64,000 bases of DNA from a virus (IMGVR_UViG_3300009128_001408:2082-66081), one strand, 5' to 3'. Shown: positions 257 to 50,820, numbered from the stretch's first letter. The notes: a model not told the origin generated them from the letters alone. Made by a program: numbers and translations.

Positions 257-1114
257 TCACCGAAGAAATTTATTAATGGCCGGGATGGCAGCCTTGGCTG
301 GGTTGTCGGCATCGACCATCACAAAATTATTGAACATATCCTGGTAGAGAGGAAGGTTTTCCTGGAGCTTGTGCCACTGGTCCTCCTGGCTTCCTCCGTG
401 GACGCGTCGGCCGCCAGGCTGTTTACCTCGATCGATATTCTGCTGCTGCGCCTGCTCAAGCGGGACCGAGACAAAAAGCATCATGGTGTCATATCCCAGG
501 GCGTCCAACATCGCCTTCTCCCGCTTTATCTTATCGTAGTTAGTAGCAGTACCATCAATTACGACACCAAGGCGACCTGTGATGTGACGCTCTAACGTTG
601 TCAGGTTACCGGGATCCTCCTTATACTTCTGCCCGAACTCCTCAGGATCGAGATCAAGGCGTTGTGCTGATATGCCTGCGCTACCTCCTGTCACCTTTTT
701 AAGGCCTCGCTGCTGGAGTGTCGACATCCTGGATCGGGACTTCTTGAGCTTTGCCTCAAGGTCCTTGAACTCCTTTTCCTCCTCCGCAGTACGGGCCTCG
801 TTATCCCTTAGGGCACGATAATCCGCGAGGAGCTTGGGATCAGGTGTTAGCTCCACCGGGGGCTTCTTATTGGGTGCCAGCTTCTCAAGAAAAGTGTCGG
901 CATTGACAATGCGAAGTCCCTCGGGTGTGAAACCTGTATCGGTACCAAAGATGGTTCGAAGCGCGGTTCCCTTACCACTGCCAGGGGCACCCGCCATGAA
1001 AATGGCCTTGAGTCTACCGGGGTCGTGGGGACCCTCCCGTAGCAGGCACTCCTCCAGGAGGATGTCCCTGATGACCTGTCTAATAAAAGCTTGGTTCGCC
1101 AGTTGCATTCTCAA
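257..1114 (-). CDS. zeta-toxin-like P-loop kinase with N-terminal leader
   Basis: KAIFMAGAPGSGKGT Walker A, IVNAD, VVIDGT; N-terminal IRQVIRDILLEE. Confidence 0.7.
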   Translation of the reverse strand: MRMQLANQAFIRQVIRDILLEECLLREGPHDPGRLKAIFMAGAPGSGKGTALRTIFGTDTGFTPEGLRIVNADTFLEKLAPNKKPPVELTPDPKLLADYRALRDNEARTAEEEKEFKDLEAKLKKSRSRMSTLQQRGLKKVTGGSAGISAQRLDLDPEEFGQKYKEDPGNLTTLERHITGRLGVVIDGTATNYDKIKREKAMLDALGYDTMMLFVSVPLEQAQQQNIDRGKQPGGRRVHGGSQEDQWHKLQENLPLYQDMFNNFVMVDADNPAKAAIPAINKFLR

Positions 1115-1727
1115 TTACCTTTCTGATAATGCTATTAAATGCCTGGGAATCGTATTCAAGGTCAGGGCCTCGTATCTTGTCTAGGATGTCCTCAATCAGA
1201 GCAGGTGCCACCTTTGCGGTGGTGTTATCAGGCATTCGCTCATCGTAGGTCAATCCTTGTGCCTCCAACTCAGCCTCAACCAGTTTAACATATTTATCCT
1301 GAAGCTCGCTCGCATATCGATTCGCCGGGGTGCCGATCAGTGCCCTCGAGTCGTCCGTCAAATCGCTAAGCTGCAGCGTGACGCCTGTATCAACCCACCC
1401 TGTCTCCGGATCGATAGCGACAGCGCTTGCGGTAGCATAATCACCGGAATTCGTGACGGATAGTTTGCCAGGGCTTGCGCCCCTATGGCCTGTAGGTGTC
1501 TTCTCCAGTATCGTAAATGTCGAATCGTTATTCAACAATGCTATCCAGTCTCCCAGCTCTTCGAAGGCCTGGTCGTGAGCGGCACCAAAATCTGAGCCGA
1601 TCCTCACGATAGGAATTTCAGCGGGTAGGCCACCAACACTTTCGTTTATTGGAGCACCGCGATAGAACTCCCGATAGAATAGTTCCTCGCGAATAAGCTG
1701 CTTGAGTTTTGCTGTTGATATTTTCAT
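1080..1727 (-). CDS. hypothetical protein with leader MKISTAKLKQLIREEL
   Basis: Overlapping-operon ORF; shared leader motif. Confidence 0.75.
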   Translation of the reverse strand: MKISTAKLKQLIREELFYREFYRGAPINESVGGLPAEIPIVRIGSDFGAAHDQAFEELGDWIALLNNDSTFTILEKTPTGHRGASPGKLSVTNSGDYATASAVAIDPETGWVDTGVTLQLSDLTDDSRALIGTPANRYASELQDKYVKLVEAELEAQGLTYDERMPDNTTAKVAPALIEDILDKIRGPDLEYDSQAFNSIIRKVIENATGEPSFY

Positions 1728-2017
1728 TCTGTATCTTCCTGTGTATCTTTGTATGTCTCCCAGGCCGCGCTAACCGAAGTTACCGACCAGCCGGGGGTCG
1801 ATGCAACCACATTAATGGCATCAGTCGGAGAGTGTCCTGTACCTATCAGCTCATTGACCTGGCCAGCAATGTCCATCGCCGGATCGTTAGCCTTTGGAAA
1901 CTCAAAGGATGTGGTCGGTTCCGGACGTAGGTTTGACCCACTCCGGTACCCCTGCTCGGTGATGGTGTGGATCTCCTCACGGATGATCTTCTTCAGTCTA
2001 GGCGGGGATAGTTTCAC
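1724..2017 (-). CDS. hypothetical protein with leader VKLSPPRLKKIIREEI
   Basis: True start probably GTG at 2017 with GAGGA upstream; the track ORF 1724..2287 is over-extended. Confidence 0.7.
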   Translation of the reverse strand: MKLSPPRLKKIIREEIHTITEQGYRSGSNLRPEPTTSFEFPKANDPAMDIAGQVNELIGTGHSPTDAINVVASTPGWSVTSVSAAWETYKDTQEDTE

Positions 2018-2333
2018 TAGTGATATCCTCGATCTCTTCCTCTTCCGAGGGAGCATCAAACTCCAGACTATTAAGCCAATTAACCAGAGCTTTTCGGTCA
2101 TCGGCATTCTTGAGCGGAAAATCCAATCCCTCACGTCGACCATCAGAACTCCAAGTGATCTCGACACCAGTTCGACCACCGACTTGTGGTCTCGCAACCC
2201 ACCATTTATTTCCCACCTGTAAATGAGGATGTTTCTCGGCGCTCCAATGAAGCTCATTCTCCTTAATAAGCTGAGGCGAGTTGTCAAGCTCCTCCTTGAT
2301 TATCCGCCTCAGTTGTCCTGATGTAAGTCTCAT
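1998..2333 (-). CDS. hypothetical protein with leader MRLTSGQLRRIIKEEL
   Basis: ATGA overlap with upstream gene; shared leader. Confidence 0.75.
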   Translation of the reverse strand: MRLTSGQLRRIIKEELDNSPQLIKENELHWSAEKHPHLQVGNKWWVARPQVGGRTGVEITWSSDGRREGLDFPLKNADDRKALVNWLNSLEFDAPSEEEEIEDITSETIPA

Positions 2334-2527
2334 TTCGTCTCCCTTGACTTCCTACTCCATAAGTCCTTGGGTAGCAGCTTCTCAATCTTAAAGTTTAGTG
2401 CCGGCTTGCCGTTGACAGTCGGGTGGCCGTACTCGTCCTCCCCGATCTCCCGGACGACTGTCCGCTTGTTCTTGAACCGACCTGTCAGGATGATGTCTCC
2501 CGGGCCGTATGGAAAATCAATTTTCAT
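2330..2527 (-). CDS. small phage-type hypothetical protein
   Basis: GDIILTGRFKNK...IGEDEYGHPTVNGK; tightly packed in operon. Confidence 0.65.
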   Translation of the reverse strand: MKIDFPYGPGDIILTGRFKNKRTVVREIGEDEYGHPTVNGKPALNFKIEKLLPKDLWSRKSRETK

Positions 2528-3073
2528 TTAAGCACCCATATCCATACTAGGTCTGGTATCTGCGAGGTCCACTGGCTTGTGATACTGGCCCAATAGAGCC
2601 TGCATTTCATCAACTGCCGTGGCCAGGTTCTCCGCAGAAATATTCTCACGACTAAGGAGGCCCAGAAGGGATGTAGGGGCTCGAGAATCTCCGCCGGCAC
2701 TGTCCATCCGACGGCGGACCATTGAAACAAGAGTGTGATCCTGGCCGCCTTTCGCTGTTTTACGTTCCCCACCTGATACCACAAGCTTCCACTTCTCGCC
2801 TGTACCAAAGTCATCACTTATGTCTGTAACTGTAAATTTGACCACTGGCGCCTTCGTCTCTTTGCCTGCAATCCGATCGCCCTCGCTGCTGGCCCAGGCA
2901 CCCAACTCAACATCATAGAGACGTGACCAATAATCAGTGGTATTACCAGGTGACCAACCTGTGTGCTCAAGAGCCCGGGGAAGACGTGACTGGGGAACGG
3001 TGCCATCCTCGATTAGGACTGTCGATAGCTCCTCCTTGATTATCAGTCGTAACTGCCTGGGTGTTAGTTTCAT
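2528..3073 (-). CDS. hypothetical protein with leader MKLTPRQLRLIIKEEL
   Basis: AGGAG RBS; shared leader; first gene of operon. Confidence 0.75.
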   Translation of the reverse strand: MKLTPRQLRLIIKEELSTVLIEDGTVPQSRLPRALEHTGWSPGNTTDYWSRLYDVELGAWASSEGDRIAGKETKAPVVKFTVTDISDDFGTGEKWKLVVSGGERKTAKGGQDHTLVSMVRRRMDSAGGDSRAPTSLLGLLSRENISAENLATAVDEMQALLGQYHKPVDLADTRPSMDMGA

Positions 3074-4867: not shown

Positions 4868-5347
4868 TCAGTCTCCTGTTATTGGAAATGGAGTCGCAGA
4901 TGGATCATCAAACCACAAATTATCACACATACTTTTAGGCAGATACCTAGTGCAGATCTCCTGACCTGGTTGAATTGTGCAACGACTGTAAAAATCCAGC
5001 GACTCATTCTCATAATTACACTTCCACGTCGCATTTGGACTGTTCGTGTCGTGATTATAGATGCCACCATAACCGAGAGAAAACGCGTTAATCTTTCCAT
5101 TCCATCCAAAAGGATACTCTAAGAGTGTAGTACGACCCTCCAAAAAATCATTCAAAATTTCAAAAACATCATTATGAAATAGAATAACAGGACATGCCTC
5201 TATTAGTTCATGCGCCTCGATCATATCCGTTGCAAACATTCCAATACCATGAATTGGAGACTCATCGACAACAACCTTATCGCTCACAAAAAATCTAGGA
5301 TACTCTTTTCTTGCCTTTCTAAACACATCAACCTCCAATATCAACAA
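4868..5347 (-). CDS. SET-domain (lysine methyltransferase-like) protein
   Basis: SPIHGIGMFA, GIYNH, IQPGQEICTRY. Confidence 0.8.
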   Translation of the reverse strand: MLILEVDVFRKARKEYPRFFVSDKVVVDESPIHGIGMFATDMIEAHELIEACPVILFHNDVFEILNDFLEGRTTLLEYPFGWNGKINAFSLGYGGIYNHDTNSPNATWKCNYENESLDFYSRCTIQPGQEICTRYLPKSMCDNLWFDDPSATPFPITGD

Positions 5348-6267: not shown

Positions 6268-6495
6268 TTAGCGCGGTGTCCTGGTGTATCCTTGACGCCT
6301 GGCGACCTCCGAGGACTCAAAACAGAACTCAGCACGAGTCACGTAATAATAACTATCGGTCGGCAGATGATAGTAGAATGAATCTGCATTTCCCTTAATG
6401 CGATGATGATCTGGACATGTCCCTGTTAGACTAATTGACCAATGAGCACATCCAGAAATCAGGATCGCCATCAAGATAAGTGCTGCTCTACCCAT
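6268..6495 (-). CDS. small lipoprotein with Ada-metal-binding/thermonuclease C-terminal-like domain
   Basis: Start [16 protein letters not shown] (lipobox); IKGN...YH.P...YY..T....CF.S...A...GY. Confidence 0.6.
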
Positions 6496-8362
6496 TTGCT
6501 TCCTCAAAGTCTGCATCAATAATTTCAGTGTCTGACACGTCTTCAGGTGGATCATCTGATTGTGACTGGTACAGGAGGGTAGCAAACTCGGAAGATGCTG
6601 CCTCTAGGTCAGCTGTGGCTGTCGTAAAATCGCCATCGGCATCGAGGACAGCCCGGGCCTCGTCGATGGCGGCGGTGACTGTGGCCTTAGCCGCCTCATC
6701 GACCTTGTCACCGTGTTCCTTGACTGTCCTGGCAAGCCCGTGAATTAGTGCCTCAAGTTTATTCTTCTCTTCAATCCTTGCGCGACGTGCCTGGTCTTCC
6801 TCGGCATTTTCCTCTGCATCCTGGACCATGGCATCTATATCGGCGTCGCTAAGAGAACCGGTCCCCTCAATCCGGATCGACTGCTCCTTGCCAGTCGCCT
6901 TGTCCTTGGCACCGACATTGACAATACCGTCGGCATCGATTGAGAATGTCACCTCAATCTGAGGGATACCTCGTGGAGCCGGCGGGAGACCTGTTAGGTT
7001 AAATCGGCCGAGAGTCTTGTTATCATTGGCAAACTGCCGCTCTCCCTGCAGGACGTGAATGTCCACTGCAGACTGGTTATCAGAAGCGGTGCTAAACGTC
7101 TCACTCTTCTCGCATGGAATCGTGGTATTACGATCGATCAGCTTCGTCATGACACCGCCCAGTGTCTCAATACCGAGACTGAGTGGTGTAACATCAAGAA
7201 GCAGTACGTCCTTGACATCACCCGTAAAGACTCCTCCCTGGACAGCTGCGCCAAGGGCGACAACCTCATCCGGGTTGACCGACTTATTAGCCTCCTTCTT
7301 GAAGAAGCCCTCCACGGCAGTGCGAACCGCTGGGATGCGTGTGGAACCTCCCACTAGGATAACCTCGTCGATTGCCCCGACCTTGAGGCCGGAGTCCTTT
7401 AAGGCACGCTTAACAGGCTTCATAGTCCTCTCGACAATCTCCGCCGTCAGCTGATCAAACTTAGATCGACTCAGCGTCAGCTGGAGGTGTTTAGGCCCAG
7501 TGGCATCGGCTGTCAGGAATGGTAGATTGATCTCGGTCTGCTGTGTGCTAGACAATTCAATCTTCGCCTTCTCGGCGGCCTCCTTAACACGCTGAAGCAC
7601 CATCTTATCTGACGCCAGGTCAATTCCGGTGTCGGCCTTAAACTCCGACATGATCCAAGCAATGACAATGTTGTCGAAGTCATCGCCGCCGAGGTGAGTA
7701 TCACCATTAGTGGCTAGCACCTCAATGACTCCATCACCAATCTCCAGGACAGAGATGTCAAACGTGCCACCGCCTAGGTCATAGACAACAACTGCCTGAT
7801 CGTTACCCTTGTCGAGACCGTACGCCAAAGCAGCTGCGGTAGGCTCATTGATGATTCGTTTAACGTTAAGACCTGCAATCTTACCGGCATCCTTTGTCGC
7901 CTGGCGTTGTGCATCATTGAAGTAGGCAGGAACAGTAACGACCGCATCACTTATCTCCTCACCCAAGTATTCCTCGGCAGCACGCTTGAGCTTCATTAAG
8001 ACCTGTGCCGAGATCTCTGGAGGTGACAGCTTCTTTCCATCCACCTCGATTGTACAAGCACCGCCCTTGCCAGATGCGATTGTATATGGCACTGACGCTG
8101 ACTCAGTCTTCGCATCGCGGTACTTGCAGCCCATAAATCTCTTAACAGAGAAGATGGTGTTCTGGGGGTTTGTAATCGCCTGGCGACGGGCAGGCTGGCC
8201 GACAAGGCGCTCGCCATCCTTCGTGTAAGCTATAACAGATGGAGTAGTTCGTGAACCCTCCTCGTTAGTGATGACCGTAGGGCCGGTCGATTCCATAACG
8301 GCAACGCACGAGTTCGTGGTGCCAAGATCAATTCCAATTACTTTATTAGACACTAGTAACAC
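6488..8362 (-). CDS. dnaK: molecular chaperone DnaK (Hsp70)
   Basis: [35 protein letters not shown]; start probably GTG at 8353. Confidence 0.97.
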
Positions 8363-10110: not shown

Positions 10111-10120
10111 AATCTTTTCC

Positions 10121-13897: not shown

Positions 13898-14165
13898 TTA
13901 AATCTCTCCTAAGATACTCCTTGATAATCATTAACTTTTTCTTCCTGGAGAGTGACTTTATCCGGCGCTCCTCTCTGAGCGCAGCAGACTGGGTCATCTC
14001 AGGACCTGCGTAGACAATACTAACAGGTCGACGGGACCTTGTATATTTGGCACCACGACCTGAATTGTGCGTACGAACTCTTCTAGATATGTCCGTCGAC
14101 ACCCCTGTATAGAGGGTATCATCCGAACACCTAACGATATATACATACCACGACCTGGAACTCAT
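13887..14165 (-). CDS. GIY-YIG nuclease (UPF0213/YhbQ-like)
   Basis: YVYIVRC..LYTG...R..HNSGRGAKYTR, ALREE..IK. Confidence 0.9.
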   Translation of the reverse strand: MSSRSWYVYIVRCSDDTLYTGVSTDISRRVRTHNSGRGAKYTRSRRPVSIVYAGPEMTQSAALREERRIKSLSRKKKLMIIKEYLRRDLNGN

Positions 14166-17589: not shown

Positions 17590-18117
17590 TTAAAAACTAT
17601 CTGGCTGTTCCAGGTCAGGCTGTTGTCTGTAATCTACTGTTATCTCGTCACCAGCCGCAATATCCTGGAGGGCGAATAGCCTTCGGACGCCGCGGCGGAG
17701 TACATTGCCAGCATTCGGCTCGTCACTATGATTGTGAAATGCTCCAAGATTTGTGGGGATATAACTGTTGGCTGCAGCGATGTGTGAGATCCCAAGATTA
17801 GTTCCCGCCGGGATATCGGCCGAGGCGAAGACACCGGTGCCATGAACACCTGAATCCTGAAGGTGCATAGGTACTGTCTGTTCGATGGCCAGCTCCTGCT
17901 GGACACCATCTGGATTTTTACAGTGCCACTTGATATGGTCCTCATAGTCCTTGATGGACACCTGGCCATCGGAGTCTAAATCAAAGTGGTGAAACAGTTC
18001 CATCGGTGTTAGATTACCGTCACCGTTGGGATCTAGGGGAGAGGCGGGTGAACCGGTCTCCTCATTAATAACAGTCTCGATTACGTGGCGAAGCGCCCCC
18101 TTGTTAATTTTCATCAC
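17590..18117 (-). CDS. leader + paired EF-hand + SET-domain protein
   Basis: MMKINKGALRHVIETVINEE; DPNGDGNLTPME and DLDSDGQVSIKD; HGTGVFA, HNHS..PN, GDEITVDY. Confidence 0.8.
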   Translation of the reverse strand: MMKINKGALRHVIETVINEETGSPASPLDPNGDGNLTPMELFHHFDLDSDGQVSIKDYEDHIKWHCKNPDGVQQELAIEQTVPMHLQDSGVHGTGVFASADIPAGTNLGISHIAAANSYIPTNLGAFHNHSDEPNAGNVLRRGVRRLFALQDIAAGDEITVDYRQQPDLEQPDSF

Positions 18118-18541
18118 TACCCCTAAGTAGCTTAGCCACCTTTATAAGATGTCCCCCAACAAACTTAAAGTCTGACGCCAGGTCCTGTCCAATCTCGGCG
18201 CCGAGTTGCCCGGCAGCAACTCTGGTCTCTCCTGCAAGGTCGACCATCGACTCGAACTGCTCTTCCGTGGCAGTCTCAGCTGCCAGGACATCCCTCTCAA
18301 TGCCTAGGAGCTCGTCGACAGCTCGCATGGCCTTAAGAGCTAGGTCAACGTGGTGCTGTTCACTCATCTCATCCTTAAGCTTGACAAATGCCTTGACGGC
18401 ACCCGGGCACAGATCAAAGTTCTCAGATGTGTAATCCCCAAACGCGACCTGCTCACCGAGGCCACCTTCTGTCTGTTCGGCCAGCCAAGGAGACAACTCC
18501 TCAGTCAGTATACTCTTAAGCTGGGACTTTCTTATTCTCAT
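18104..18541 (-). CDS. hypothetical protein with leader MRIRKSQLKSILTEEL
   Basis: Shared leader; likely start at 18541. Confidence 0.7.
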   Translation of the reverse strand: MRIRKSQLKSILTEELSPWLAEQTEGGLGEQVAFGDYTSENFDLCPGAVKAFVKLKDEMSEQHHVDLALKAMRAVDELLGIERDVLAAETATEEQFESMVDLAGETRVAAGQLGAEIGQDLASDFKFVGGHLIKVAKLLRGSDEN

Positions 18542-18625: not shown

Positions 18626-18877
18626 TCATGGTAACCTTTCGTACCAGGGGCCCATCGGCCTTTCCTCAGTTGCAAGGTCCATGCCATGGCATCGCTGTAC
18701 ATCGGCACCAAAGCCGTACTGGTGATCGTTAAAGTACTTCTCCCACTCCTCATCGATTATAGGGACGCCCTCAATCCGACGTCGAGGATTTATAATCTTT
18801 CGTTCAGTCACAATCCTCCCATTTGCCTTCTTGGAACTTATCATGACCTCCTTCTGGTTGGCTGACTTCTTTTTCAT
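18626..18877 (-). CDS. hypothetical protein
   Basis: ORF coupled to upstream stop. Confidence 0.55.
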   Translation of the reverse strand: MKKKSANQKEVMISSKKANGRIVTERKIINPRRRIEGVPIIDEEWEKYFNDHQYGFGADVQRCHGMDLATEERPMGPWYERLP

Positions 18878-19941
18878 CAGGCATCGCCTCGCAGGTACAG
18901 GTGAATATCATTGAGGTGTGTCAAGGCAGCCGCAAGCTTTACATCGACCCAGTCCGGTAGATCATCTCGACCCGCCAGAGCGGACTCAATCTTGGATGAT
19001 AGCGAACTGACCTCACGAAGCACGGTACGTGCCATGTCATTCCCATCATCGTGTGACTCTGTCGTAGGCTCGTGACAGCCACAGCCCTCGTCTGCGCCTA
19101 GAATAAGATCATTGGGAGGATCAAAATTGGAGGATGCCCTAGATTCTGGATCTGGACTACCTCGATGCCTCGGATTATCCAACTCACCAAGCTCTTCCTT
19201 TAAAATTGCTGCTAGTTCACTCTTTAGTATTTTCATATTATACCCCTCCTGAGCAACGGACAATGATATGTCTCTGTCGGATCTCTCAGTGTCGGCGAGG
19301 CGATCCAAGTAGCCCCTCCGCCTGAGCTCTTTAAAGGCTAAATTCTCCACGGAAAACTCGCCTGCATTACTTAACCCTGTTTTTCTCATATTGGCCAGCT
19401 TCTCACGCAAGCCTGTGATGTGCATCGCCCTATCTGAACGCTGAAGTGTGTCATCAATCAGAGCCATGAGAGACTCCACTTTCTGTACCACAGATGCCGG
19501 ATCGACACTTGGTTCCGTTCGAGTCGGCTGGATCACCCACTTGTCTCGAAGGACGCTATAGACACCTGTCGAATGATGTAACTCAGAAGCATCCTGAGGA
19601 TATACCTCGACGTCATGACCCTTGATAGTGATATTGTGCCTGAGGTTCCACAGCGACTTCTTGGCCATTAGCATTTGACTAACAAGATCTAGATCTTCGT
19701 CTATTGAAGAATAATCCATTATAACATGGAGATCTAGGTCACTCTCAGGTGTGTAGTTAAAATTAGCCATGCTTCCTGTGACAGTTATATCCTCAGGTGT
19801 GGCTTCGATACCAAGACTAATCAAAAACTCAGCCGCGATGCGAAGAAGTGCCTTCCTAGCACCACGTCGCATAGTGCTATCATCCCATATCTCAGGGTCT
19901 AGCACATCATGAACTAATGGCGAGGAATCGGGTCCAGACAT
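18877..19941 (-). CDS. Pol-beta-superfamily nucleotidyltransferase fused to a leader-bearing C-terminal module
   Basis: TGSMANF...SDLDLHV, DVEVY; internal AGGAGG-N9-ATG start at 19236 (MKILKSELAAILKEEL). Confidence 0.75.
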   Translation of the reverse strand: MSGPDSSPLVHDVLDPEIWDDSTMRRGARKALLRIAAEFLISLGIEATPEDITVTGSMANFNYTPESDLDLHVIMDYSSIDEDLDLVSQMLMAKKSLWNLRHNITIKGHDVEVYPQDASELHHSTGVYSVLRDKWVIQPTRTEPSVDPASVVQKVESLMALIDDTLQRSDRAMHITGLREKLANMRKTGLSNAGEFSVENLAFKELRRRGYLDRLADTERSDRDISLSVAQEGYNMKILKSELAAILKEELGELDNPRHRGSPDPESRASSNFDPPNDLILGADEGCGCHEPTTESHDDGNDMARTVLREVSSLSSKIESALAGRDDLPDWVDVKLAAALTHLNDIHLYLRGDA

Positions 19942-25546: not shown

Positions 25547-26212
25547 TTAATTGACTGAATGCTTGATAGTATAATCAACAATAAAATAATTGGCCTGCAG
25601 CGTATCAATATCTTCGTCTTCAAAGTCCGGCTCTTCAGCAATATGTTCATAGTACCCGCTGTCAATCTCACCGCTTTTAGACTCTCCTTCATTAACCAAC
25701 TCTAACAGGTTAGTTGTGAGCTTCATAGCCAGGCTTCTCTTTGAGGACTCAATCTCGGCGTTTAGTTTAGGAATCTGTTCTAGCCATGCATCCTTGACAA
25801 TGGCATCCTGACCCGGCTTGAGCCTGCCTATTCCCAACTGGTCCTGCAAGTACTTGTCTATTATGCTCGTAACATCTCGCTTCTCCAGCTCGGCACGTGC
25901 AAGAAATCCAGACACGAATGCCTCGGTCTCTATCATGCACGCAAAATACTCAGGACCGCACTGGTTATGTGTAACCTCTTCCATGTCAGCCTGACCGAGG
26001 TGCGTCATCTCATGGACAATAGCATCATACAGCTCAGCGCGAAGCGCGGATCGATCACCATCACTAAGGTCACGATCGATCCTAATTTCAACCTCAATAT
26101 TCGGTTCACCGGTATCATTCATGCCAGCAGAGGCTTCAACGTTAAAACCTATGTTCGAGTAGGTGCCCTCTTGAAGGACTGCCAGAATAATATTACGAAG
26201 CCTCATCATCAT
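25547..26212 (-). CDS. leader-bearing HExxH (zincin-like) protein
   Basis: MRLRNIILAVLQE leader; HEMTH..Q and downstream ETEAF. Confidence 0.6.
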   Translation of the reverse strand: MMMRLRNIILAVLQEGTYSNIGFNVEASAGMNDTGEPNIEVEIRIDRDLSDGDRSALRAELYDAIVHEMTHLGQADMEEVTHNQCGPEYFACMIETEAFVSGFLARAELEKRDVTSIIDKYLQDQLGIGRLKPGQDAIVKDAWLEQIPKLNAEIESSKRSLAMKLTTNLLELVNEGESKSGEIDSGYYEHIAEEPDFEDEDIDTLQANYFIVDYTIKHSVN

Positions 26213-26789
26213 TACCTCTCTCAATCGCCACAGCCAAGGAGGCGGGATCCCCCAATTCATCCTTTGCCAGCCTCTGCTTTCCCACAAGCACTGCCTCCAA
26301 GTGATCGGTGCTCCACTCATCCTCCAAGTACACAGGGGCACCAAGGACTTCTCTTGAGGCGCCTGACGAGTATTGGGAAACTAGGGCGTCTTTATAGTGC
26401 CTGCCTGAATCGTAGTACTTGCGTTGGACATCAGCATCGTTACTAGAGACAGACTCGTCGGGATGCAGTTTGTCAAGCTGGCTCTCGGGAACGTATCCGT
26501 GGATTAATACGCCGGTCCGGTCAAAACCTGTCCAGTCCATCCGGTTCTCATTATGGCCAACAGTAAACCAGATTGCATCGAGCACATTGTGCGGAGAGTG
26601 GCGTTTCATTTTGCCGCCCTTCATGATCGCCTGCAGGTTCGCAGCACTGGTCTGGTGTGTAACCGGCAGGCCCTTACCTGGGACAAGTAGCTTTTTTATC
26701 TCCATCCTCCACTGCGGCTCGTAATTTCCAGCAGCCTTGGATAAAAACTCACGCCACCCCTCCATTATGAGATTCATGTCATCACTCAT
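26193..26789 (-). CDS. leader-bearing protein, possible ADP-ribosyltransferase fold
   Basis: MNLIMEGWREFL leader; THQTS..NL.AI..GG...AIWFT resembles ART H-G-T and aromatic-x-S/T strands. Confidence 0.5.
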   Translation of the reverse strand: MSDDMNLIMEGWREFLSKAAGNYEPQWRMEIKKLLVPGKGLPVTHQTSAANLQAIMKGGKMKRHSPHNVLDAIWFTVGHNENRMDWTGFDRTGVLIHGYVPESQLDKLHPDESVSSNDADVQRKYYDSGRHYKDALVSQYSSGASREVLGAPVYLEDEWSTDHLEAVLVGKQRLAKDELGDPASLAVAIERGNDDEAS

Positions 26790-27111: not shown

Positions 27112-28716
<1,605 letters not shown>

Positions 28717-35590: not shown

Positions 35591-37228
35591 CTATTTCTTC
35601 AATTTCTCAGCGTGTTTTTGGTGCTTTTTAAATGCCTGCCCCACGGTTTCAAGAACTTCTCTGGCCATTTCATTTCCCTCAAATGTCTCAACAACGTCCT
35701 CAGTCTGCTTAATGTATCCATCGGCAGCATCCTTTGTAAACGTCCTGAGTAGACGGGAGACATCATCCTCAAACTCCTTTAGTCTGACATTGATTTTCTT
35801 GGCATTTCTAAGTATTATCTCTGGATTTTCCTCTTCAAGCTTGGTGTATTCACTTTGTTTTGTGGGGACATTCTCCGCACCAAATTCGGCTTCATATTCA
35901 GCTCTTCGTGACTTATCAGTAGCAGACGGAAGACCTACATAGCCACCTGCGCCGGGCTTAAGTTTCACATCTTCAAACCCACCCAAAAGCACCTCGGAAA
36001 AAATCCTTTTAGACAGCTCAGCGAAGCTTTCATTATCCATAAACTCCAAGCCAAAGGCGTCATATAATTCCCTTAAAACCATCTCATTTTGGGACTGGGA
36101 CTTATCCTGATAGGGCTCAACGCTAAGATCTCCATTATAAAGCGACGTAAAAACAAAGGACTTCACACCTGTCCTAAATAATTGATTAAAGCTCATTACA
36201 AGTAGAGGTAAGAGTTTTTCATATGCGCTCTTCTTCTCGGGAATAACCACACCTTTGTTGTCAAAAAAGTATCTAATTCCTAAATTCTCATTAAACCTGC
36301 CCAAAACATTCCTAATTGCGCTAACGCCCATTTTAACGCCCTCGGCCTTAAGCTGCTCAGAAATCTTCTTTAATAGTTCAGACTCAGAGCCAGTCTTACC
36401 AGTAGCTGCCCTATCCTTGCTTCCCTTATATGCGGCCTCATGTGCATCAGTCCAGAAAGGTGGGCCCAGTTTTCTCAATGCGCTAATATCACCAGGAAGA
36501 TAAGCGCGCTGAACATCTCTAATAATATCATCTGCCCTAGAGTCATCAGTTTTCTCAAATTCGACATACATGTCACTGATCTCTTCCATAGGCTTCTCAC
36601 CAAGCCGCCTTATAATCCATGGACTCATCATTCGAAAATCACTCCAAGGATCCCTATAGTCTAAACCTTCTCGATTAAACCCATCTAAAGCTTCCTGCTG
36701 GGACGATTGTTCCACAAGTACCTGTCTAACAGTCTTCCTAACCCGATGCTCTGTTACCTGCGTTTGGGCGATACGCCTGATCCTCTCAGCGACTGTGACA
36801 TCCACCTGGTCCTCGGCATTTGCCTCCTCCTGGTCGGCACGCTCCAGCTCCTGGTCGGGACTCGGCTCTGGCATCATATCTGTCTGGTCCTCACCGGCTC
36901 GGTCCTGCTGTCGAATCGATGTGGTGACGAGCCTCCTGAGCTTGTGATAGAAGTCCTGGACCTGGAGTGGCGGCACGTTCTGAACAAGGACGTTGGCTGC
37001 GTGCTGAAGCTGTTGGAGGTTTCCTGGTAGGAACTCGGCGTCATTGACAGGCGGATCGACCATCTCATCGCCGATCATGGCGGCTATGTTAACAGGAAGG
37101 TCGTGCACAGGAAGCTCCTGGACAGCGGCTGGTGCCTCTTCGGCTGCCTGCATATGGGTTTCATCGGCCTCAGTTCCCGGTGCGTCCAGGCGCTCCCTCA
37201 GGACCCTTCTAAGTTGTTTGTAATCCAT
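35591..37228 (-). CDS. large hypothetical protein with leader MDYKQLRRVLRE
   Basis: AGGAG RBS; class II motif at 37248-37257. Confidence 0.7.
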   Translation of the reverse strand: MDYKQLRRVLRERLDAPGTEADETHMQAAEEAPAAVQELPVHDLPVNIAAMIGDEMVDPPVNDAEFLPGNLQQLQHAANVLVQNVPPLQVQDFYHKLRRLVTTSIRQQDRAGEDQTDMMPEPSPDQELERADQEEANAEDQVDVTVAERIRRIAQTQVTEHRVRKTVRQVLVEQSSQQEALDGFNREGLDYRDPWSDFRMMSPWIIRRLGEKPMEEISDMYVEFEKTDDSRADDIIRDVQRAYLPGDISALRKLGPPFWTDAHEAAYKGSKDRAATGKTGSESELLKKISEQLKAEGVKMGVSAIRNVLGRFNENLGIRYFFDNKGVVIPEKKSAYEKLLPLLVMSFNQLFRTGVKSFVFTSLYNGDLSVEPYQDKSQSQNEMVLRELYDAFGLEFMDNESFAELSKRIFSEVLLGGFEDVKLKPGAGGYVGLPSATDKSRRAEYEAEFGAENVPTKQSEYTKLEEENPEIILRNAKKINVRLKEFEDDVSRLLRTFTKDAADGYIKQTEDVVETFEGNEMAREVLETVGQAFKKHQKHAEKLKK

Positions 37229-37277
37229 GTCTACTCCTAGCACTCCAGATAAATATCAAGTAAGGTGCCTTTAATCA

Positions 37278-37931
37278 TTAGCTCATCTGAACCGCTTGTG
37301 GTTCAGACGGATAAACTCCATAAGCTTTTTTCAAGGTGTTACTGGCCAAGCTTAAAGAATCACCTTGCATCTCCTGGCCTGAGACTGCCATATCGCGCAG
37401 CCGAGCCTTAATCTTAGCAAGGGCAGTCTGGTATGCCTCCTCAGAAAGCATATTATCAAGCCCATCAGGAAGGTCAACCGCGGCGAGGAAGGCCGACTGT
37501 GCTGACTTCTCATCAGGCATATTAAGCAGTTTGCTAATCATCTCGCTTGCCTTGCCTTTAGCCTCACCTTTAAGATCAGGTAATTTATCAACCACCTTCT
37601 CTTTAATATCGTCATCAATGGTGTTCCACCACCCAACAATACCTGACTTTGTAACTCTTGCAATAATACCCCCTGCGGTTAACTTTACTCCAGCTGCTGT
37701 AAGCGCTGTGGCAAGGATGGGGGCAGCATATATAGAAAAAGCCAAAAAACTTACTCCAACAAATAACTTTCCCAGGATTTCCTTCCGTGTTTTCTCATCC
37801 TTAACAGACTTCAACGTCTCCTCGGCAGCTTCAAAATCTGTAATCAGCTGTGCCGGTGTCTTTCCATCATCCTCATTGAGAAATCGACGCCAATCCTCCA
37901 TGATCAGTTGCATGTCATTTCTATTTCCCAC
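37278..37931 (-). CDS. leader-bearing protein with hydrophobic segment
   Basis: MQLIMEDWRRFLNE leader; central hydrophobic helix. Confidence 0.7.
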   Translation of the reverse strand: MGNRNDMQLIMEDWRRFLNEDDGKTPAQLITDFEAAEETLKSVKDEKTRKEILGKLFVGVSFLAFSIYAAPILATALTAAGVKLTAGGIIARVTKSGIVGWWNTIDDDIKEKVVDKLPDLKGEAKGKASEMISKLLNMPDEKSAQSAFLAAVDLPDGLDNMLSEEAYQTALAKIKARLRDMAVSGQEMQGDSLSLASNTLKKAYGVYPSEPQAVQMS

Positions 37932-37990
37932 TGACTGAGGCCTCCGATAAGACGCTGTGCTACGTCATCCAATAAATATGGACTAGTCGG

Positions 37991-39637: not shown

Positions 39638-40204
39638 TCAGGCTCCTGGTGTCGGTCCCGCCCCTACAGCTGCCGGAGGTGGCTGCGTATCGTCGATGGG
39701 ATTCAACTCCATACCATACTGCTGCGCCATTATCTCTGTAAAATCATCGACTACGCTTCGATCGTATCGATTGTCCAGGAAATTCATGGAGCGATTCAGA
39801 ATGACAGTAACAGGATCCATCAGGCTCTCAAAGTTCATGATTAACCTGGCAACAGAACCTGCGAAATCGTCTATGTTAAGTGGGGGCTGGCGCTCCTCGG
39901 TAGGCTGCTCAGCTGACATCTCCTCGCTTCCGACAATCTCTGGATCGCCGGCTATCTCGGCGTCCTCCTCCTCGCCGCCCTCCTGCTCGAACAGGTGTGA
40001 CATAACTGTGCGTAGGCTCTTGGACTCATTGACATCACCAATGGCCTGATTCTCATACTTAATAAGTAGAGAGTCGATCTGATCATCCAGGGAATCGTTG
40101 GACAGACCGGCTGGCACCATGACACCGTCAGAACCGGTGCCGGGCTTATTAGTCTCAGCCTCCTCCATGATCAGTCGTCTCAAAAAATCATTAGTAATTC
40201 TCAT
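39638..40204 (-). CDS. hypothetical protein with leader MRITNDFLRRLIMEE
   Basis: Shared leader. Confidence 0.7.
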   Translation of the reverse strand: MRITNDFLRRLIMEEAETNKPGTGSDGVMVPAGLSNDSLDDQIDSLLIKYENQAIGDVNESKSLRTVMSHLFEQEGGEEEDAEIAGDPEIVGSEEMSAEQPTEERQPPLNIDDFAGSVARLIMNFESLMDPVTVILNRSMNFLDNRYDRSVVDDFTEIMAQQYGMELNPIDDTQPPPAAVGAGPTPGA

Positions 40205-40205
40205 G

Positions 40206-40991
40206 TCACACGTTCTCCAAACTTTTTAATTCACGAGCGAGCCGGCCCTGAATATATCTTACATTATCTTCACCCATCTTAGCAGTCCGGCCGCCGAACT
40301 TACTAATCAGGGCATTGTAAAATTCCTGTATCTCTGCATCGCTTGGGTCACCCCTTAAGGCGGTAACAAGAGCTGTTCCGCTGTCATTGTCCAGGACATC
40401 TATCGTCGCTTTTCTAATCTGGGAATTGCCGTCGTTCACAGACTTTTCAACAAGCTGAGGCTTTAACTTTGAGATAGCCATGTCAATATCATCAAGGTCA
40501 TTAGCAAGATATAGTGCATCACTGCGGGCAGTCTTTAAAGATTGCAACTCAGCACGAAGTCGATCTTCGTATTCCTTTGCTTCCTGCTGGGTACCGCGGT
40601 TACCGTCTGGAAGCTCGACCTTATCATCGGTCTTCATGCTCTTAATTTTGGCAGTTAAGTCCCTTATCTCTTGCTCTTTTTTCTCCATATTCTTCTCAAG
40701 CTTGAGCTTAAGCTCCTTGCGATGTTCAGGTGATTCAGCGCCATACATTCTCTTCGTCACAAAAAGCTTTATTTCAGCCGGGGTCAAGTCTGCCAGGGCA
40801 TTAAAAACACCTGCAGCGTCTAAGTTCACCATCGCTGTACCTAGCCTCTCACCAGCCTTCATTTTCTCGTGACCAGCCTTAGCACCCTTAACGATACCCC
40901 CAATCGCCCGGCCGATCAGCTCATCAACTTCCTCGTGGCCGTGTTCAAATAATGATTCAGCTATGTACTCCCTCAGAAGTTGTTCAGACAT
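40206..40991 (-). CDS. coiled-coil protein with leader MSEQLLREYIAESLFE
   Basis: GAGG RBS; start at 40991. Confidence 0.7.
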   Translation of the reverse strand: MSEQLLREYIAESLFEHGHEEVDELIGRAIGGIVKGAKAGHEKMKAGERLGTAMVNLDAAGVFNALADLTPAEIKLFVTKRMYGAESPEHRKELKLKLEKNMEKKEQEIRDLTAKIKSMKTDDKVELPDGNRGTQQEAKEYEDRLRAELQSLKTARSDALYLANDLDDIDMAISKLKPQLVEKSVNDGNSQIRKATIDVLDNDSGTALVTALRGDPSDAEIQEFYNALISKFGGRTAKMGEDNVRYIQGRLARELKSLENV

Positions 40992-40995: not shown

Positions 40996-41691
40996 CTACC
41001 TCGAGACCTGTGCAATTCTCTCAGCCCTGACAAAGCGATTCTCGATAACATCCCAGTTCAGTTGTGCCATCATGTTATACAGGTACTGCCTCTTATTCTT
41101 TAGGTAGTCGTGGAAGTATGCGTGCTCCCACATGTCCATGACAATGACCGGCACACATCCCATTGGAACGTTTCGATCGTGACCGTCGATAATAATATTG
41201 ACGTAGCCCTGTAGGTACGTATTGAAACAACAAACAGCCCACCCTGACTGGGCGGACATTGCGCAGGCGATAAAATCCTCCTGCCAGGAGTCGAAGTTGC
41301 CCCAGTCTCTGGACAACCGCATGTATGACAGTGAATCCATGGCCAGCTCTGAGACTGGTGCTGCGATATTGGCGAAGTACAGCTCGTGGAGGTAGAGGGC
41401 GGCCATGTTGGACTGTTCGGCCAGCTTAGTGTCACGGAACACTGAGCATATAGCATTGGCATCCTCGCGAGGAATACCATCCAGCTCAGCTGATGTCTTG
41501 TTAAAGCACGCCACATAATTCTTGTACAGCTCGATGTGGGCGGTCTTCGCCTTTTGGCTCAGCTTCTCAGTGTTGAGGTCGAACTGCTTGACTTGAGCGA
41601 CAAACGCCTCTGTCAGTATTTCAGGCGTCGGCTGGTCATCATCCATCCCCATGGACTCCCTAATGTTCTTTTTAATATCGTCGTATTTCAT
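40996..41691 (-). CDS. Fe/Mn superoxide dismutase with N-terminal extension
   Basis: Metal ligands H (AHIELY), H (LHELYF), DMWEHAY; extension MKYDDIKKNIRES...ILTE. Confidence 0.85.
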   Translation of the reverse strand: MKYDDIKKNIRESMGMDDDQPTPEILTEAFVAQVKQFDLNTEKLSQKAKTAHIELYKNYVACFNKTSAELDGIPREDANAICSVFRDTKLAEQSNMAALYLHELYFANIAAPVSELAMDSLSYMRLSRDWGNFDSWQEDFIACAMSAQSGWAVCCFNTYLQGYVNIIIDGHDRNVPMGCVPVIVMDMWEHAYFHDYLKNKRQYLYNMMAQLNWDVIENRFVRAERIAQVSR

Positions 41692-41702: not shown

Positions 41703-41990
41703 TCAGTCCAATTTATACCTGGATCGTAGTTCATCGTTATCTATAAATGATGTCTTCTTCTTACCATCAGATGTAACAAAACTGACCTGCACACCCTCAG
41801 GCCGGACTGTTTCTATGGTGTATAGTAGTCCCGACTTCTTCTCACGAATCTTGAGACCTGTGCTAAGAATGCCTGTCTCATGGCCGCCTAGGCTGGCGAA
41901 CGCATCCAGCTCATCCACGACCTCCTGTACCTTCTTCTGGTACTCCTCGCGGATCAACTGAACGACCTGCTGCTCGGTCAGCTTCTCCAT
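41703..41990 (-). CDS. hypothetical protein with leader MEKLTEQQVVQLIREEY
   Basis: GGAG RBS; shared leader. Confidence 0.7.
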   Translation of the reverse strand: MEKLTEQQVVQLIREEYQKKVQEVVDELDAFASLGGHETGILSTGLKIREKKSGLLYTIETVRPEGVQVSFVTSDGKKKTSFIDNDELRSRYKLD

Positions 41991-43986: not shown

Positions 43987-44824
43987 TGGTCTCCTTATCG
44001 AAGATGTCATCGACTTTAAAGTCACCTGGTAACTGGAAACCGGCAGCCTTCCTGTGGCCTCCTCCATCATACCTCTTGGCAATCTCACAGACATCGATGG
44101 CATCGTGGAATGACCTGAGGCTAACCTTGATAAACTTGCTAATGTGATCGTAGTACCATATCATTGCAAAGTCACAGTCGGGTGCCAGCTTGGCCCCAAT
44201 CTCCGATATCCAGTGCGATGAGTTGACAACCATGACGCTCTTACCGTCCATCTTACGAGAGGCAGCCTTGTCGCAGACTTTCTTGACGACTGTCTTCGAG
44301 TACGCCAGGATGTAAGATCCCCGCTTGACAGCATCATCAAAGACCGAGTCATCCTCGAACTTCTCGAACTCCTCGAACTCGAAAGGTACCATATCAAAGG
44401 CTGCACTAAACTCCTTGGAGTAGGGAAGCTCCCACTTCCAGAGATCGCGATCCTGAATATACTGGATGAATTTTGGGCACTCCTTGCCGGGGTGGAAAAA
44501 TTCCCATGATAGCATGGCACCAGACTTGGTCATATCAAACTGGGTATTGGATATATCATGGAGCTCTACCATGGCCGACTTGTGGTGATCTAGAATTATC
44601 AGGTCAGAAGCCGACTCAATCATGGCCTTTGTTGTCTCATTATTGAATGAGAAGTCCAGGATGGCCACTGTCTTGCCCTTAACATTAGGTGGTTTAGTAC
44701 CGTGCTTACACGGATGATACTCGGTTCGATTGCCGAGAAGCTTCCACGCGCCGTATGCGGCGCCGAAACCATCGGTGCAGTCAGCATGATAGATTACACA
44801 ATTTACGCTTGTTGGCTCAATCAT
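43946..44824 (-). CDS. DHH/DHHA1 phosphoesterase
   Basis: YH..C.DG, LDF, LDHH, DRDLW, SLRS, GGGH.KAAG. Confidence 0.88.
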   Translation of the reverse strand: MIEPTSVNCVIYHADCTDGFGAAYGAWKLLGNRTEYHPCKHGTKPPNVKGKTVAILDFSFNNETTKAMIESASDLIILDHHKSAMVELHDISNTQFDMTKSGAMLSWEFFHPGKECPKFIQYIQDRDLWKWELPYSKEFSAAFDMVPFEFEEFEKFEDDSVFDDAVKRGSYILAYSKTVVKKVCDKAASRKMDGKSVMVVNSSHWISEIGAKLAPDCDFAMIWYYDHISKFIKVSLRSFHDAIDVCEIAKRYDGGGHRKAAGFQLPGDFKVDDIFDKETSGRRKKKTAAGKN

Positions 44825-49224: not shown

Positions 49225-49230
49225 AATATT

Positions 49231-49258
49231 ATTCTAACACGTTTGAGTCGAATTTACA
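49231..49258 (-). promoter_or_regulatory. class I promoter TGTAAA-N16-TAGAAT
   Basis: 6 nt from the dnaE ATG; no RBS. Confidence 0.6.
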
Positions 49259-49265
49259 CGCAAAT

Positions 49266-50072
49266 CTAGAGCTTTTCAGGGCGTGTGCCCCTCTTTCTAG
49301 CTGCGGGTCGCTCGCCAACCTTGCGACGTGCCTCTCGACTGTCATCGCTGTCATAGCGCTCTATAAATTTTAGCGTCATATCGTCTGGAATTCCTTGCGC
49401 TCCCAACTGACGACAGACTGCGGACAGGATCCTGGCACGGACCTCATTGTTACCGAAGTTAACGCCCCATGTCCACTCAATTGCCTGCCTTATGCCTCCA
49501 AGCTCGCCCTCAGCCTTCTTTATCTGACTTCTTATCTTGCTTATTTTTATCTCAATAGGAATATCCACATCGATACCTAGGTAAATTGCCAGCTCTATTA
49601 GGTCGTCCATTAGGCGAAGCTCAAATGCAGCGCATGCCTGTTGATAGATCTGAAATCTATCATGCATCTCCTCCTCAGAAAGACCTGTCATGTGCTGCAC
49701 CTTGTCTGGGTGTGTCAGTGTTACTATCTTCCTGAACAGCTGTTTCAACTCCTTGCTGGAAGGATCGGTCAATGACTCAATATCCTCATCATCGTCGTCG
49801 TCTTCTAGTTGTGGTTGTTTTGTTGGATCATCTATAGCAACGGCTGTTTCAGGCTTATCATCTGGAAGCTCAGGTGAAGAATTATTCTGTGACTCTGTCA
49901 GGCCGAGTTCCGCAAGATAACTGTAGACAGCATCCCTAAGCTCTAGCTTGTAAATATGAAATGATTCGTTACTGTCGAGAAGTTCCTCACGCAGGAACTT
50001 TAATTGATATGTCAGCTTCTTCAGCTGCCTGTCATCGTTGGCCTTAAGTTGCTTACGTATCTTGGACGCCAC
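49266..50072 (-). CDS. J-domain-containing protein (DnaK co-chaperone-like)
   Basis: ELKQLFRKIVTLTHPDK. Confidence 0.7.
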   Translation of the reverse strand: MASKIRKQLKANDDRQLKKLTYQLKFLREELLDSNESFHIYKLELRDAVYSYLAELGLTESQNNSSPELPDDKPETAVAIDDPTKQPQLEDDDDDEDIESLTDPSSKELKQLFRKIVTLTHPDKVQHMTGLSEEEMHDRFQIYQQACAAFELRLMDDLIELAIYLGIDVDIPIEIKISKIRSQIKKAEGELGGIRQAIEWTWGVNFGNNEVRARILSAVCRQLGAQGIPDDMTLKFIERYDSDDSREARRKVGERPAARKRGTRPEKL

Positions 50073-50079
50073 ACAGAGC

Positions 50080-50316
50080 TTACCTGTCCAGGCGCCACTT
50101 AATCAGTGCGACAATATCTCTTACGATTGGAACAGGCCAGAGAGGTGACCACTTAACCAGGCCAAGGTTATCGTTGGCGACACCCTTATAGAACTGCTTA
50201 AGATCCTTACCCCTGGCACGATTTGAGAGCTTGACTGCATTCGATGCAGTCCATAGTCTCGAGACCAAAAACACGACAATGGTAATACCATACACTAATG
50301 TGATATCATCTAGCAT
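50080..50316 (-). CDS. small membrane protein
   Basis: AGGAG RBS; N-terminal TM. Confidence 0.55.
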   Translation of the reverse strand: MLDDITLVYGITIVVFLVSRLWTASNAVKLSNRARGKDLKQFYKGVANDNLGLVKWSPLWPVPIVRDIVALIKWRLDR

Positions 50317-50319
50317 TTA

Positions 50320-50820
50320 TTACTCCTGCTTTTTAATTACACGACGTAAAAGACTGCGAAGTTCATCATTTCTAGTCGAAGATGAAGTGCCCTTTGCGCT
50401 ATTAATAGTACGGGAAGACTGATCCTCTGTTAAAGGCTTTTTAGTCTGGGTGGGTGGATTGACACGAATGACATTGGCGACGACGCTGGGGCGAGCTGGA
50501 CGACGAGTAACTATCGCCTCAGCCATGACCTTGACTGACTGCTTGAAATTCGCAGTAAGCTGTAACGGTGTAAATATGCGATCGTCTATCACTACCTCGA
50601 GGCGTGTATTATAAAGGCCCTCGTTAAGGACACCCTTAAGTGACGGTACGATAACTGAGACCTCACCGCCCGGAATTGCAGTGCCCTGGAATACCAGGTC
50701 CATCTTGCTGGACTCCAATACCATCCTGCTCTTAACGCTTGCAGTGGCGTCAGTTCCCTCTGCGGTCACATTAAACCTGAGCTCATTCTCCTCATCAAGA
50801 TGTACTTCAAAATCTGCCAT
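50320..50820 (-). CDS. hypothetical protein with C-terminal LRSLLRRVIKK motif
   Basis: GAGG RBS; beta-rich N-terminal domain. Confidence 0.65.
   Translation of the reverse strand: MADFEVHLDEENELRFNVTAEGTDATASVKSRMVLESSKMDLVFQGTAIPGGEVSVIVPSLKGVLNEGLYNTRLEVVIDDRIFTPLQLTANFKQSVKVMAEAIVTRRPARPSVVANVIRVNPPTQTKKPLTEDQSSRTINSAKGTSSSTRNDELRSLLRRVIKKQE

Follow-up and report, generated by a model that had tools for sequence, protein, structure and literature searches.

A portable N-terminal leader on unrelated proteins of uncultured giant phages, a candidate capsid-targeting propeptide

Leader-bearing genes of the window

In a 64,000-nucleotide stretch of viral DNA (hereafter the window), which comprises bases 2082-66081 of the 66,081-bp IMG/VR record IMGVR_UViG_3300009128_001408 (CheckV completeness 27%) and holds nearly all of its genes on the minus strand, a short amphipathic leader recurs at the N-termini of proteins that are otherwise unrelated. 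The original prediction had listed 14 N-terminal and two C-terminal peptides of this kind, and every one of them is present at the position given for it, on the minus strand. The leader is real and widespread, and it comes in at least two sequence classes, which we call class A (M-K-I-T-K-x-Q-L-K-x-I-I-K-E-E-L) and class B (M-K-L-I-M-E-x-W-R-x-F-L-x-E).

Profiles of the two classes (hidden Markov models, HMMs), trained on sequences from outside the window only, were run on the window's 730 six-frame open reading frames (ORFs) and recovered seven leaders, all of them on the coding strand and at the proposed start. Five belong to class A (at 3073, 2333, 1727, 18541 and 2017, with independent E-values from 8e-7 to 0.0053) and two to class B (at 26777, E 1.7e-9, and 37913, E 8.4e-7). 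Among the class A genes, all on the minus strand, exact matches to the degenerate search pattern described below open a 181-aa protein at 2528..3073 (starting MKLTPRQLRLIIKEEL; E 8.3e-7; a further [LI]-x-E site, L-I-E, lies at residues 20-22, and neither Pfam nor PHROGs assigns a family), a 111-aa protein at 1998..2333 (starting MRLTSGQLRRIIKEEL; E 2.8e-6) and a 215-aa protein at 1080..1727 (starting MKISTAKLKQLIREEL; E 2e-5), the start of the last closely resembling that of L081, from a related 65-kb contig. The 97-aa product of 1724..2017, a gene with a GTG start, begins VKLSPPRLKKIIREEI, two mismatches away from the pattern, and carries I-T-E at residues 19-21 (E 0.0053), and the 145-aa product of 18104..18541 begins MRIRKSQLKSILTEEL, with L-A-E at residues 20-22 (E 0.0028). 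The class B genes, also on the minus strand, encode proteins of about 194 aa (26193..26777; starting MNLIMEGWREFL) and about 211 aa (37278..37913; starting MQLIMEDWRRFLNE), the latter with a copy of the motif ATATTTAT upstream, at 37972-37979.

About nine further starts are leader-like by eye only, which makes the earlier estimate of about 20 tagged proteins too high. All of these lie on the minus strand as well. A 188-aa protein (39638..40204), starting MRITNDFLRRLIMEEA, is borderline in the class A profile (E 0.5), and a 95-aa protein (41703..41990) has a weak leader-like start (MEKLTEQQVVQLIREEY; E 5.2) that reaches scores of 33-34 when paired with class A starts in the blind test reported below. 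Weak leader-like starts are also seen on a 174-aa protein with an EF-hand and a SET domain (17590..18114; MKINKGALRHVIETVINEE; Pfam SET 3e-10) and on a 545-aa protein (35591..37228; MDYKQLRRVLRE; ATATTTAT motif at 37249-37256). By Pfam, the 283-aa product of 257..1108 is a P-loop kinase of the Zeta-toxin/AAA_33 type, with a leader-like helix, QAFIRQVIRDILLEE, before its P-loop, and a 261-aa protein (40206..40991) starts LLREYIAE, with similar starts at 291805 and 292314 in G001, a 293-kb relative introduced below. The peptide at 19236, for its part, is present and has a strong AGGAGG before an ATG, but it sits inside an ORF, at residue 236 of 354; in this ORF (18877..19941) a complete nucleotidyltransferase-like match (phrog_36119, residues 10-228) is followed in frame by the leader module MKILKSELAAILKEEL, and G001 has similar in-frame fusions with an internal leader at 49505 and 51473. 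The C-terminal copies are likewise present as peptides but do not reach significance in the class A profile, the one near 50370 scoring E 8.4 and FNSIIRKVIE falling outside the top 22 matches. As a separate observation, the superoxide dismutase encoded at 40996-41691 is extended at its N-terminus by about 25 residues, which open with MKYDDIKKNIRE, a leader-like start ending in I-R-E; its G001 orthologue retains the helix, and not the Glu.

In a blind test, gene starts were picked by Shine-Dalgarno score, with no use of the motif, and the first 20 residues after the Met were compared without gaps (BLOSUM62) over 88 proteins, or 3,828 pairs, a set from which genes 2333, 2017 and 19236 were absent. 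Seventeen pairs of N-terminal 20-mers scored at least 28, compared with a mean of 4.3 for internal windows (maximum 12 in 200 draws) and of 3.5 for shuffled N-termini (maximum 10 in 200); at a score of at least 32 there were seven pairs, compared with 0.72 and 0.70, respectively (maximum 4). The likeness of the N-termini thus stands above both controls, as predicted. The top pairs formed three groups, namely class A, the class B starts M[NQ]LIME[GD]WR[ER]FL at 26777 and 37913, and the start LRNIILxxLQE at 27081 and 26209. The two genes of this last group (26791-27081 and 25547-26209, minus strand; pair score 42) flank a class B gene and have a Glu at residue 14. The LRNIILxxLQE start is indeed shared by this pair, as had been noted, but it is not widespread: as a candidate third leader (class C) it was rejected, since its eight IMG/VR matches begin no ORF and all but one have stops in or beside the frame, so that we regard it as a local pair only.

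The DNA that encodes the leaders varies freely at synonymous positions, indicating that conservation acts at the protein level and is not that of a DNA repeat. A DNA repeat or promoter cassette as the cause of the shared starts was rejected on the strength of these synonymous differences and of the absence of any shared upstream k-mer. The statement that the replication enzymes are without the leader holds, and so does the statement that the tagged proteins are otherwise unrelated: with the first 22 residues removed, none of 820 pairs reached BLASTP E<1e-3 (41 proteins, 32 from G001 and nine from the window).

Classes, carriers and cargo beyond the window

A degenerate back-translation of class A found at least 134 IMG/VR stretches, and none when the pattern was reversed. 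These 134 loci yielded 149 distinct ORF starts, 144 of them on ORFs of at least 45 aa, with the consensus MKITKSQLKQIIKEEL, and many loci had two or three class A genes in tandem. Positions that the pattern left free are conserved all the same, as seen for T4 (Thr; 123 of the 144), K5 (88), Q7 (66) and Q10 (76). For class B we obtained 61 IMG/VR stretches and 62 ORF starts with the consensus MKLIMENWRKFLxE. The two classes align without gaps, sharing hydrophobic residues at positions 3, 8, 11 and 12, a basic residue at 9 and a Glu at 14.

The relative G001 (the record behind locus L124) is a genome of 293,409 bp with terminal repeats and a CheckV completeness of 100. Of 86 window proteins, 32 have matches in it, with identities of 24-73% and in partly conserved order, the window from 50 kb to 23 kb roughly paralleling G001 219-257 kb. 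G001 has about 32 class A genes, 23 of which form one array at 47.6-58.1 kb; two others lie at 267 kb and seven at 284.5-286.5 kb, directly after an Hsp70 gene as in the window. At up to two mismatches, the genomes G000 to G004 contain 4, 9, 12, 7 and 9 leader genes, with a reversed control of 0 in each, and the 484-kb uncultured phage record LR756508 contains 13 (control 0). The carriers are uncultured giant phages, for the most part apparently aquatic. Genes for SET-domain proteins were seen in both settings: the window has one at 4868-5347 besides the EF-hand protein at 17590-18114 with its weak leader-like start, and in G001 a SET gene (56991-57491) forms the end of the leader array.

Pfam assigned no family to 116 of 119 leader proteins (89 from IMG/VR and 30 from G001), the other three being one AAA_33 kinase and two weak matches. 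The bodies behind the leader have a median size of 114 aa and a median isoelectric point of 4.3, compared with 5.9 for all G001 proteins. A homology search with one 119-aa leader protein gave 1,571 word-sharing candidates, of which five were true homologues (E<=7e-29); in the remainder of the same search, the 37 matches listed had E-values from 1.7e-4 to 1 and covered the query only in part, and none of the names was informative. P-loop kinases recur behind leaders or leader-like helices, in the window (257-1108), in L126 and in G001 (240543).

The leader is portable between bodies, and classes A and B are interchangeable, as can be seen in one cargo family. Its member in the window, a leaderless protein of 65 aa (2330..2527, minus strand), is 63% identical to a leader-A protein of G001 (284505) and 52% identical to a leader-B protein, L213, from a 184-kb contig, and divergence in the three alignments is confined to roughly the first 13 residues.

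The T4-type head module and the [LI]-x-E motif

In the T4-type head module of G001, the large terminase and the portal precede a 283-aa protein, which is followed by the gp21-type protease (Peptidase_S77); five small proteins then lead up to a helical, acidic protein of 562 aa and a pair of gp23-type capsid proteins, and sheath and tube genes lie further downstream. The capsid protein is 37% identical to that of Microcystis phage Mel-JY01 and, over partial length, 47% identical to that of Flavobacterium phage immuto. We also observed that the two tandem gp23-type capsid genes (G001 176269-180150; 632 and 629 aa) are identical over about their first 50 residues, and that tail-sheath genes are likewise found in tandem (183880-190235; 1054 and 1049 aa).

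An S77 protease is present in 30 of the 47 leader contigs of at least 30 kb, all but two of which are fragments. The five largest leader contigs all have it, as do 25 of the 42 further contigs of at least 30 kb (fragments, 11-79% complete), for which random placement predicts about 14, by hand-summed completeness. Among the records examined, none that is complete and leader-bearing was without an S77 protease.

In all five large genomes, moreover, conserved proteins near the protease begin with the leader. In G001, G002, G003 and G005, a protein of ~140 aa two genes past the protease starts MK[ILM][ST][KR]xxLKxxVKECLVEILxEG, and the next, of ~85 aa, starts MKLT..LL.[KR][LI][IV].EE; in G004, which is more distant, the head module contains MKKSELKNIIKECVKEVIFEEG. 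A leader HMM run on 2,811 six-frame ORFs placed head-module proteins directly below its training set, at ranks 32-38 (independent E 0.002-0.1), and the copies in G003, which score poorly in the profile, are plainly alike by eye. In LR756508, 12 of the leader genes lie within 30 kb of a capsid gene, and two flank the protease gene. We think that the leader-bearing conserved proteins beside the protease probably belong to the prohead core. The ~140-aa protein falls into no PHROG family, and its Atlas model is of low confidence (predicted local distance difference test, pLDDT, 0.58). When the scaffold-like 562-aa protein of G001 was co-folded with a leader of 40 residues (alignments of 4 and 30 rows, respectively), the score was 0.00 both times, with no controls, and the result is counted neither way.

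Both leader classes contain [LI]-x-E ending at residue 14, which is the motif of the T4 protease, and conservation stops soon after it. T4 gp21 cuts after Glu, and in T4 replacing this Glu by Asp blocks the cut. Among the sites given for it in PMC5694885 and PMC9026906, Alt has I-T-E and L-T-E, and gp21 itself has L-I-E. In class A the I-x-E14 is fixed, but it was forced by the search pattern; in class B, where these positions were free in the search, E14 follows L-x in 47 of 62 starts and has G, S or A as its next residue in 39 of 62. Of the 144 class A proteins, 53% possess a second [LI]-x-E that ends within residues 18-22, compared with at most 2% per position over residues 23-45, and after this second site the sequence shifts to Gly, Ser, Ala, Asp, Glu and Pro. 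The leaders of LR756508 have the same two-site layout. Because the motif is short, it is weak evidence on its own. Two proteins of the G001 head module are rich in it: of 320 proteins, the one of 283 aa ranks fifth, with 12 copies compared with 5.1 expected, and the one of 562 aa ranks fourteenth, with 19 compared with 12.6 expected. This fits putative core proteins that would be chopped up.

A promoter motif shared by the tagged genes, another element of the original prediction, could not be confirmed: exact 6- to 8-mers upstream of 8 or 12 tagged window genes were no commoner than for random gene sets. The motif ATATTTAT is found 30-50 nt before the portal, scaffold-like and sheath genes of G001 and before its gene for a 1,585-aa structural protein, and it also precedes the G001 leader genes 52386, 54951 and 282952. 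In the window, two of the three intergenic coding-strand copies precede 37913 and 37228, leaving only two window members, both called weak, behind this motif of the relative's head and tail genes. The placement of ATATTTAT hints at co-expression of leader genes with head genes, in small numbers. The T4 late promoter TATAAATA was tried in G001 and rejected, with eight copies on each strand and no signal. Separately, G001 has about 13 copies of a strong, bipartite, promoter-like element of sigma-70-like type with an extended -10 box, consisting of TCTGTAAAAAA, about 14 nt and TATGGTATAATA, which lie 30-80 nt before gene starts (for example at 13426-13457, 44356-44387 and 280386-280417); among the copies listed, none has a leader gene immediately behind it. 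The window also encodes, at 23041-23814, a sigma-70-family factor of full length (regions 1.2, 2 and 3 and a weak region 4), which is kept in G001 at 256.7 kb.

As for the other genes of the window, Pfam identified replication and nucleotide genes (DnaE-type polymerase, helicase, 5'-3' exonuclease, thymidine kinase and dCMP deaminase) along with host-like genes for Hsp70, GroEL, isocitrate lyase, malate synthase, phosphoenolpyruvate (PEP) carboxykinase, GMP reductase/inosine monophosphate dehydrogenase, phosphomannomutase, superoxide dismutase (Fe/Mn) and the two SET-domain proteins. Such a set of host-like metabolic and chaperone genes is, to our knowledge, unusual in a phage, and several of its members are also present in G001. 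The glyoxylate-shunt enzymes isocitrate lyase and malate synthase adjoin PEP carboxykinase at 8416-12971; the other host-like and chaperone genes lie at 6488-8362 (dnaK), 27112-28716 (groEL), 14162-15178, 20349-21173 and 40996-41691 (superoxide dismutase). PHROGs gave a family match for four of 55 window proteins. A free-standing GIY-YIG nuclease gene (13887-14165; 92 aa) sits between amidase and GMP-reductase-like genes, and the presence of a homologue elsewhere in G001 (36.3 kb) suggests a mobile, homing-type element. Finally, the region 50320-62689 encodes very large proteins (1655, 695 and 981 aa) with no Pfam or PHROG family above threshold. The first two are 52-55% identical to G001 proteins that open the tail/structural block, and the match of the 981-aa protein to this block is limited to 77 residues; all three are probably tail fibres.

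Interpretation and significance

Starting from the observed tag, with its spread, its portability, its link to a T4-type head module and the position of its motif, we propose that the leaders are capsid-targeting propeptides of T4-type giant phages, in a new sequence version and greatly expanded. We consider this likely and hold it with moderate confidence, because every functional step, from docking and cutting to retention and ejection, is one that we infer. A T4-like propeptide cut after [LI]-x-E, as originally suggested, is the reading best supported by the S77 head module of G001, by the leader beside the protease in five of five genomes, by the motif at which conservation ends and by a single cargo found with leader A, with leader B and with none; all of this support is comparative.

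In the proposed mechanism, a basic, amphipathic helix of 14 residues (M-K-phi-x-x-x-x-phi-[KR]-x-phi-phi-x-E, with two or more classes) would dock the newly made protein to the prohead scaffolding core, and the same helix heads the conserved proteins next to the prohead protease, which are probably core members. Once the shell has closed, the Peptidase_S77 protease would cut behind Glu14 and, in many cases, once more behind an [LI]-x-E at about residues 18-22, and the freed body, mostly small and acidic, would stay in the head and enter the host with the DNA. The portability of the tag, we propose, would then allow these phages to keep large, fast-changing gene arrays. A more tentative extension, to which we give slightly less than even credence, is that interchangeable address peptides (at least A and B) load a hypervariable capsid arsenal, comprising in each genome as many as about 30 small acidic proteins together with a few enzymes (SET methyltransferase, P-loop kinases), with cargo recruited by leader swapping.

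Several results weigh against the capsid-targeting reading. The window's own record, 66 kb and 27% complete, has no capsid, portal or protease gene, and since it lacks both head genes and protease, the link to the head rests on the relative G001. Leaders lie no closer to the protease than uniform placement would have them (nine of 30 within 5 kb, compared with 5.9 expected and a simulation maximum of 14), and homology of the ~140-aa head-module protein to T4 gp68 (141 aa) was not detected (hhalign probability 0.1). Most tagged genes of the window lie in tight arrays in which a promoter motif of their own is absent. Some proposed members are weak: the class A profile is not significant for 41990 (E 5.2) or 18114 (E 10), and the leader module at 19236 is outside the top 22 matches. 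The class A leader is absent, at up to two mismatches, from the cultured T4-type phages Mel-JY01, immuto_3-5A, MED4-213 and RM378 and, at up to three mismatches, from XacN1, RsoM2USA and T4, the last having one 3-mismatch match with an in-frame stop. The depletion of internal [LI]-x-E in the bodies, finally, is weak (39 compared with 46.4 expected, and 119 compared with 132 expected, each with p about 0.11; a control gave 225 compared with 214 expected), and the bodies are acidic, in contrast to the T4 internal proteins, which are basic according to the accessible part of PMC9026906.

The last two of these points would sit comfortably with another explanation, in which the tag is the N-terminal helix of a fast-evolving cytoplasmic family that serves host takeover or anti-defence, is never packaged, and uses the helix for oligomerisation or for binding a common target, for example nucleic acid. 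The leader genes do form tandem arrays of ORFans, small, acidic and without known domains, a sigma-70-like promoter class is found 3 kb upstream of the main array of G001, and the strongly basic character of the helix would suit nucleic acid binding. We nevertheless consider this explanation unlikely, as it leaves unexplained why the helix also heads conserved head-module proteins in five of five genomes, why conservation ends at [LI]-x-E, why one body is found with two interchangeable leaders and why the tag travels with the S77 protease.

It is also conceivable, although we judge it quite improbable, that the tag does target the prohead core but that the proteins bearing it only fill the core, as disposable core or scaffold-like components that would be lost at maturation, by degradation or expulsion, and would not be cargo ejected into the host. 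In that case acidic bodies would be in keeping with T4 gp67, which is visibly acidic, the sharing of the tag with probable core proteins would follow, and the low pLDDT of the ~140-aa head-module protein (0.58) would be as expected for a disordered core protein. The bodies, however, are not enriched in [LI]-x-E (the 39 compared with 46.4 expected given above), unlike the putative scaffold proteins; enzymes occur among the tagged proteins (the SET-domain protein and the P-loop kinases), and fillers offer no rationale for thirty-odd different ones per genome.

That the tag is a signal for some other machine (the phage Hsp70 or GroEL, a protease degron or membrane targeting) we regard as very improbable: leader clusters do adjoin dnaK (window 6488-8362, G001 281 kb) and groEL (window 27112-28716), and the hydrophobic core of the leader with its basic flanks presumably resembles Hsp70-binding peptides, but of the five leader-bearing genomes only G001 has an Hsp70 gene, the 100% complete G004 has nine leader genes and no Hsp70, on which ground dependence on a phage Hsp70 was rejected, and the hydrophobic span, read directly from the leaders, is too short for membrane insertion.

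The closest parallel for the capsid-targeting reading is the capsid-targeting sequence (CTS) of T4, described in the accessible parts of PMC3012670 and PMC9026906 as an N-terminal peptide of 10-19 residues that is the sole conserved part of diverse internal proteins, binds the scaffolding core and is removed by gp21. Like the CTS of IPI, IPII, IPIII and Alt, the leader is an amphipathic peptide of few residues at the N-terminus, shared by proteins with nothing else in common, which starts Met-Lys and ends hydrophobic-x-Glu; the complete relative G001 has a T4-type head module with a Peptidase_S77 protease, and the tagged genes lie in tandem, the T4 record showing two adjacent tandem genes with an identical leader. 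The differences are that the leader has another sequence, with no real class A match in T4, that it is longer, with 14 residues and in many cases a further site at about 18-22, compared with 10 residues in IPIII, that it exists in at least two interchangeable classes, that about 32 genes are tagged in one genome (G001) compared with a handful in T4, that the bodies are acidic, and that the leader is also found on conserved head-module proteins. Since the likeness lies in the architecture alone, with no sequence similarity to the T4 CTS, we regard the leader as a functional analogue or a very distant relative of the CTS and not as a member by sequence.

In the T-even phages, internal-protein loci (Repoila et al. 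1994, as cited in PMC9026906) are variable, the replaced genes keeping CTS-like starts, and the accessible parts of PMC3012670 and PMC9026906 read this variability as an arms race with host restriction. Unlike these loci, the leader arrays are far larger and belong to uncultured giant phages only distantly related to T4, the identity of their capsid proteins to those of cultured phages being at most about 47%, over partial length. A search of the literature for the motif strings and for CTS in cyanophages, with subscription journals mostly outside its reach, turned up no account of the leader. A tblastn search with a 24-aa consensus leader against 50,697 phage records gave no match at E<=10, which says little given so short a query. 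For phages of the phiKZ type, we know of no single portable leader across dozens of unrelated genes. In phiKZ, 201phi2-1 and SPN3US, according to the accessible text of PMC5694885, an S80 prohead protease cuts the propeptides of numerous head and ejection proteins after A/S/G-x-E, so that processing after the Glu of a three-residue motif, possibly at several sites per propeptide, is common to these phages and to the proposed scheme, and paralogs of this type may share identical N-terminal residues. By the same account, their motif differs in opening with a small residue and not with Leu or Ile, and their protease is S80 and not S77.

As the principle is already known from T4, the surprise is limited; the CTS has been proposed, in the available part of PMC9026906, as a route by which T4-like phages take varied proteins into the capsid. 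If the capsid-targeting reading is right, sequence alone would list the proteins that this large uncultured T4-type group carries in its heads and delivers, and, should the arsenal proposed above exist, its injected proteins would be readable in hundreds of uncultured viruses. Injected proteins act ahead of any phage gene expression; among those of T4 are one that inhibits a restriction enzyme and one that enzymatically modifies the host RNA polymerase. On the arsenal view, the acidic bodies would be candidates for injected anti-defence or DNA-mimic proteins. The tag could also serve as a packaging signal in engineered relatives. With arrays several times the size of those of T4 and with contents that turn over completely between relatives, these phages would be a rich source of counter-defence and takeover functions.

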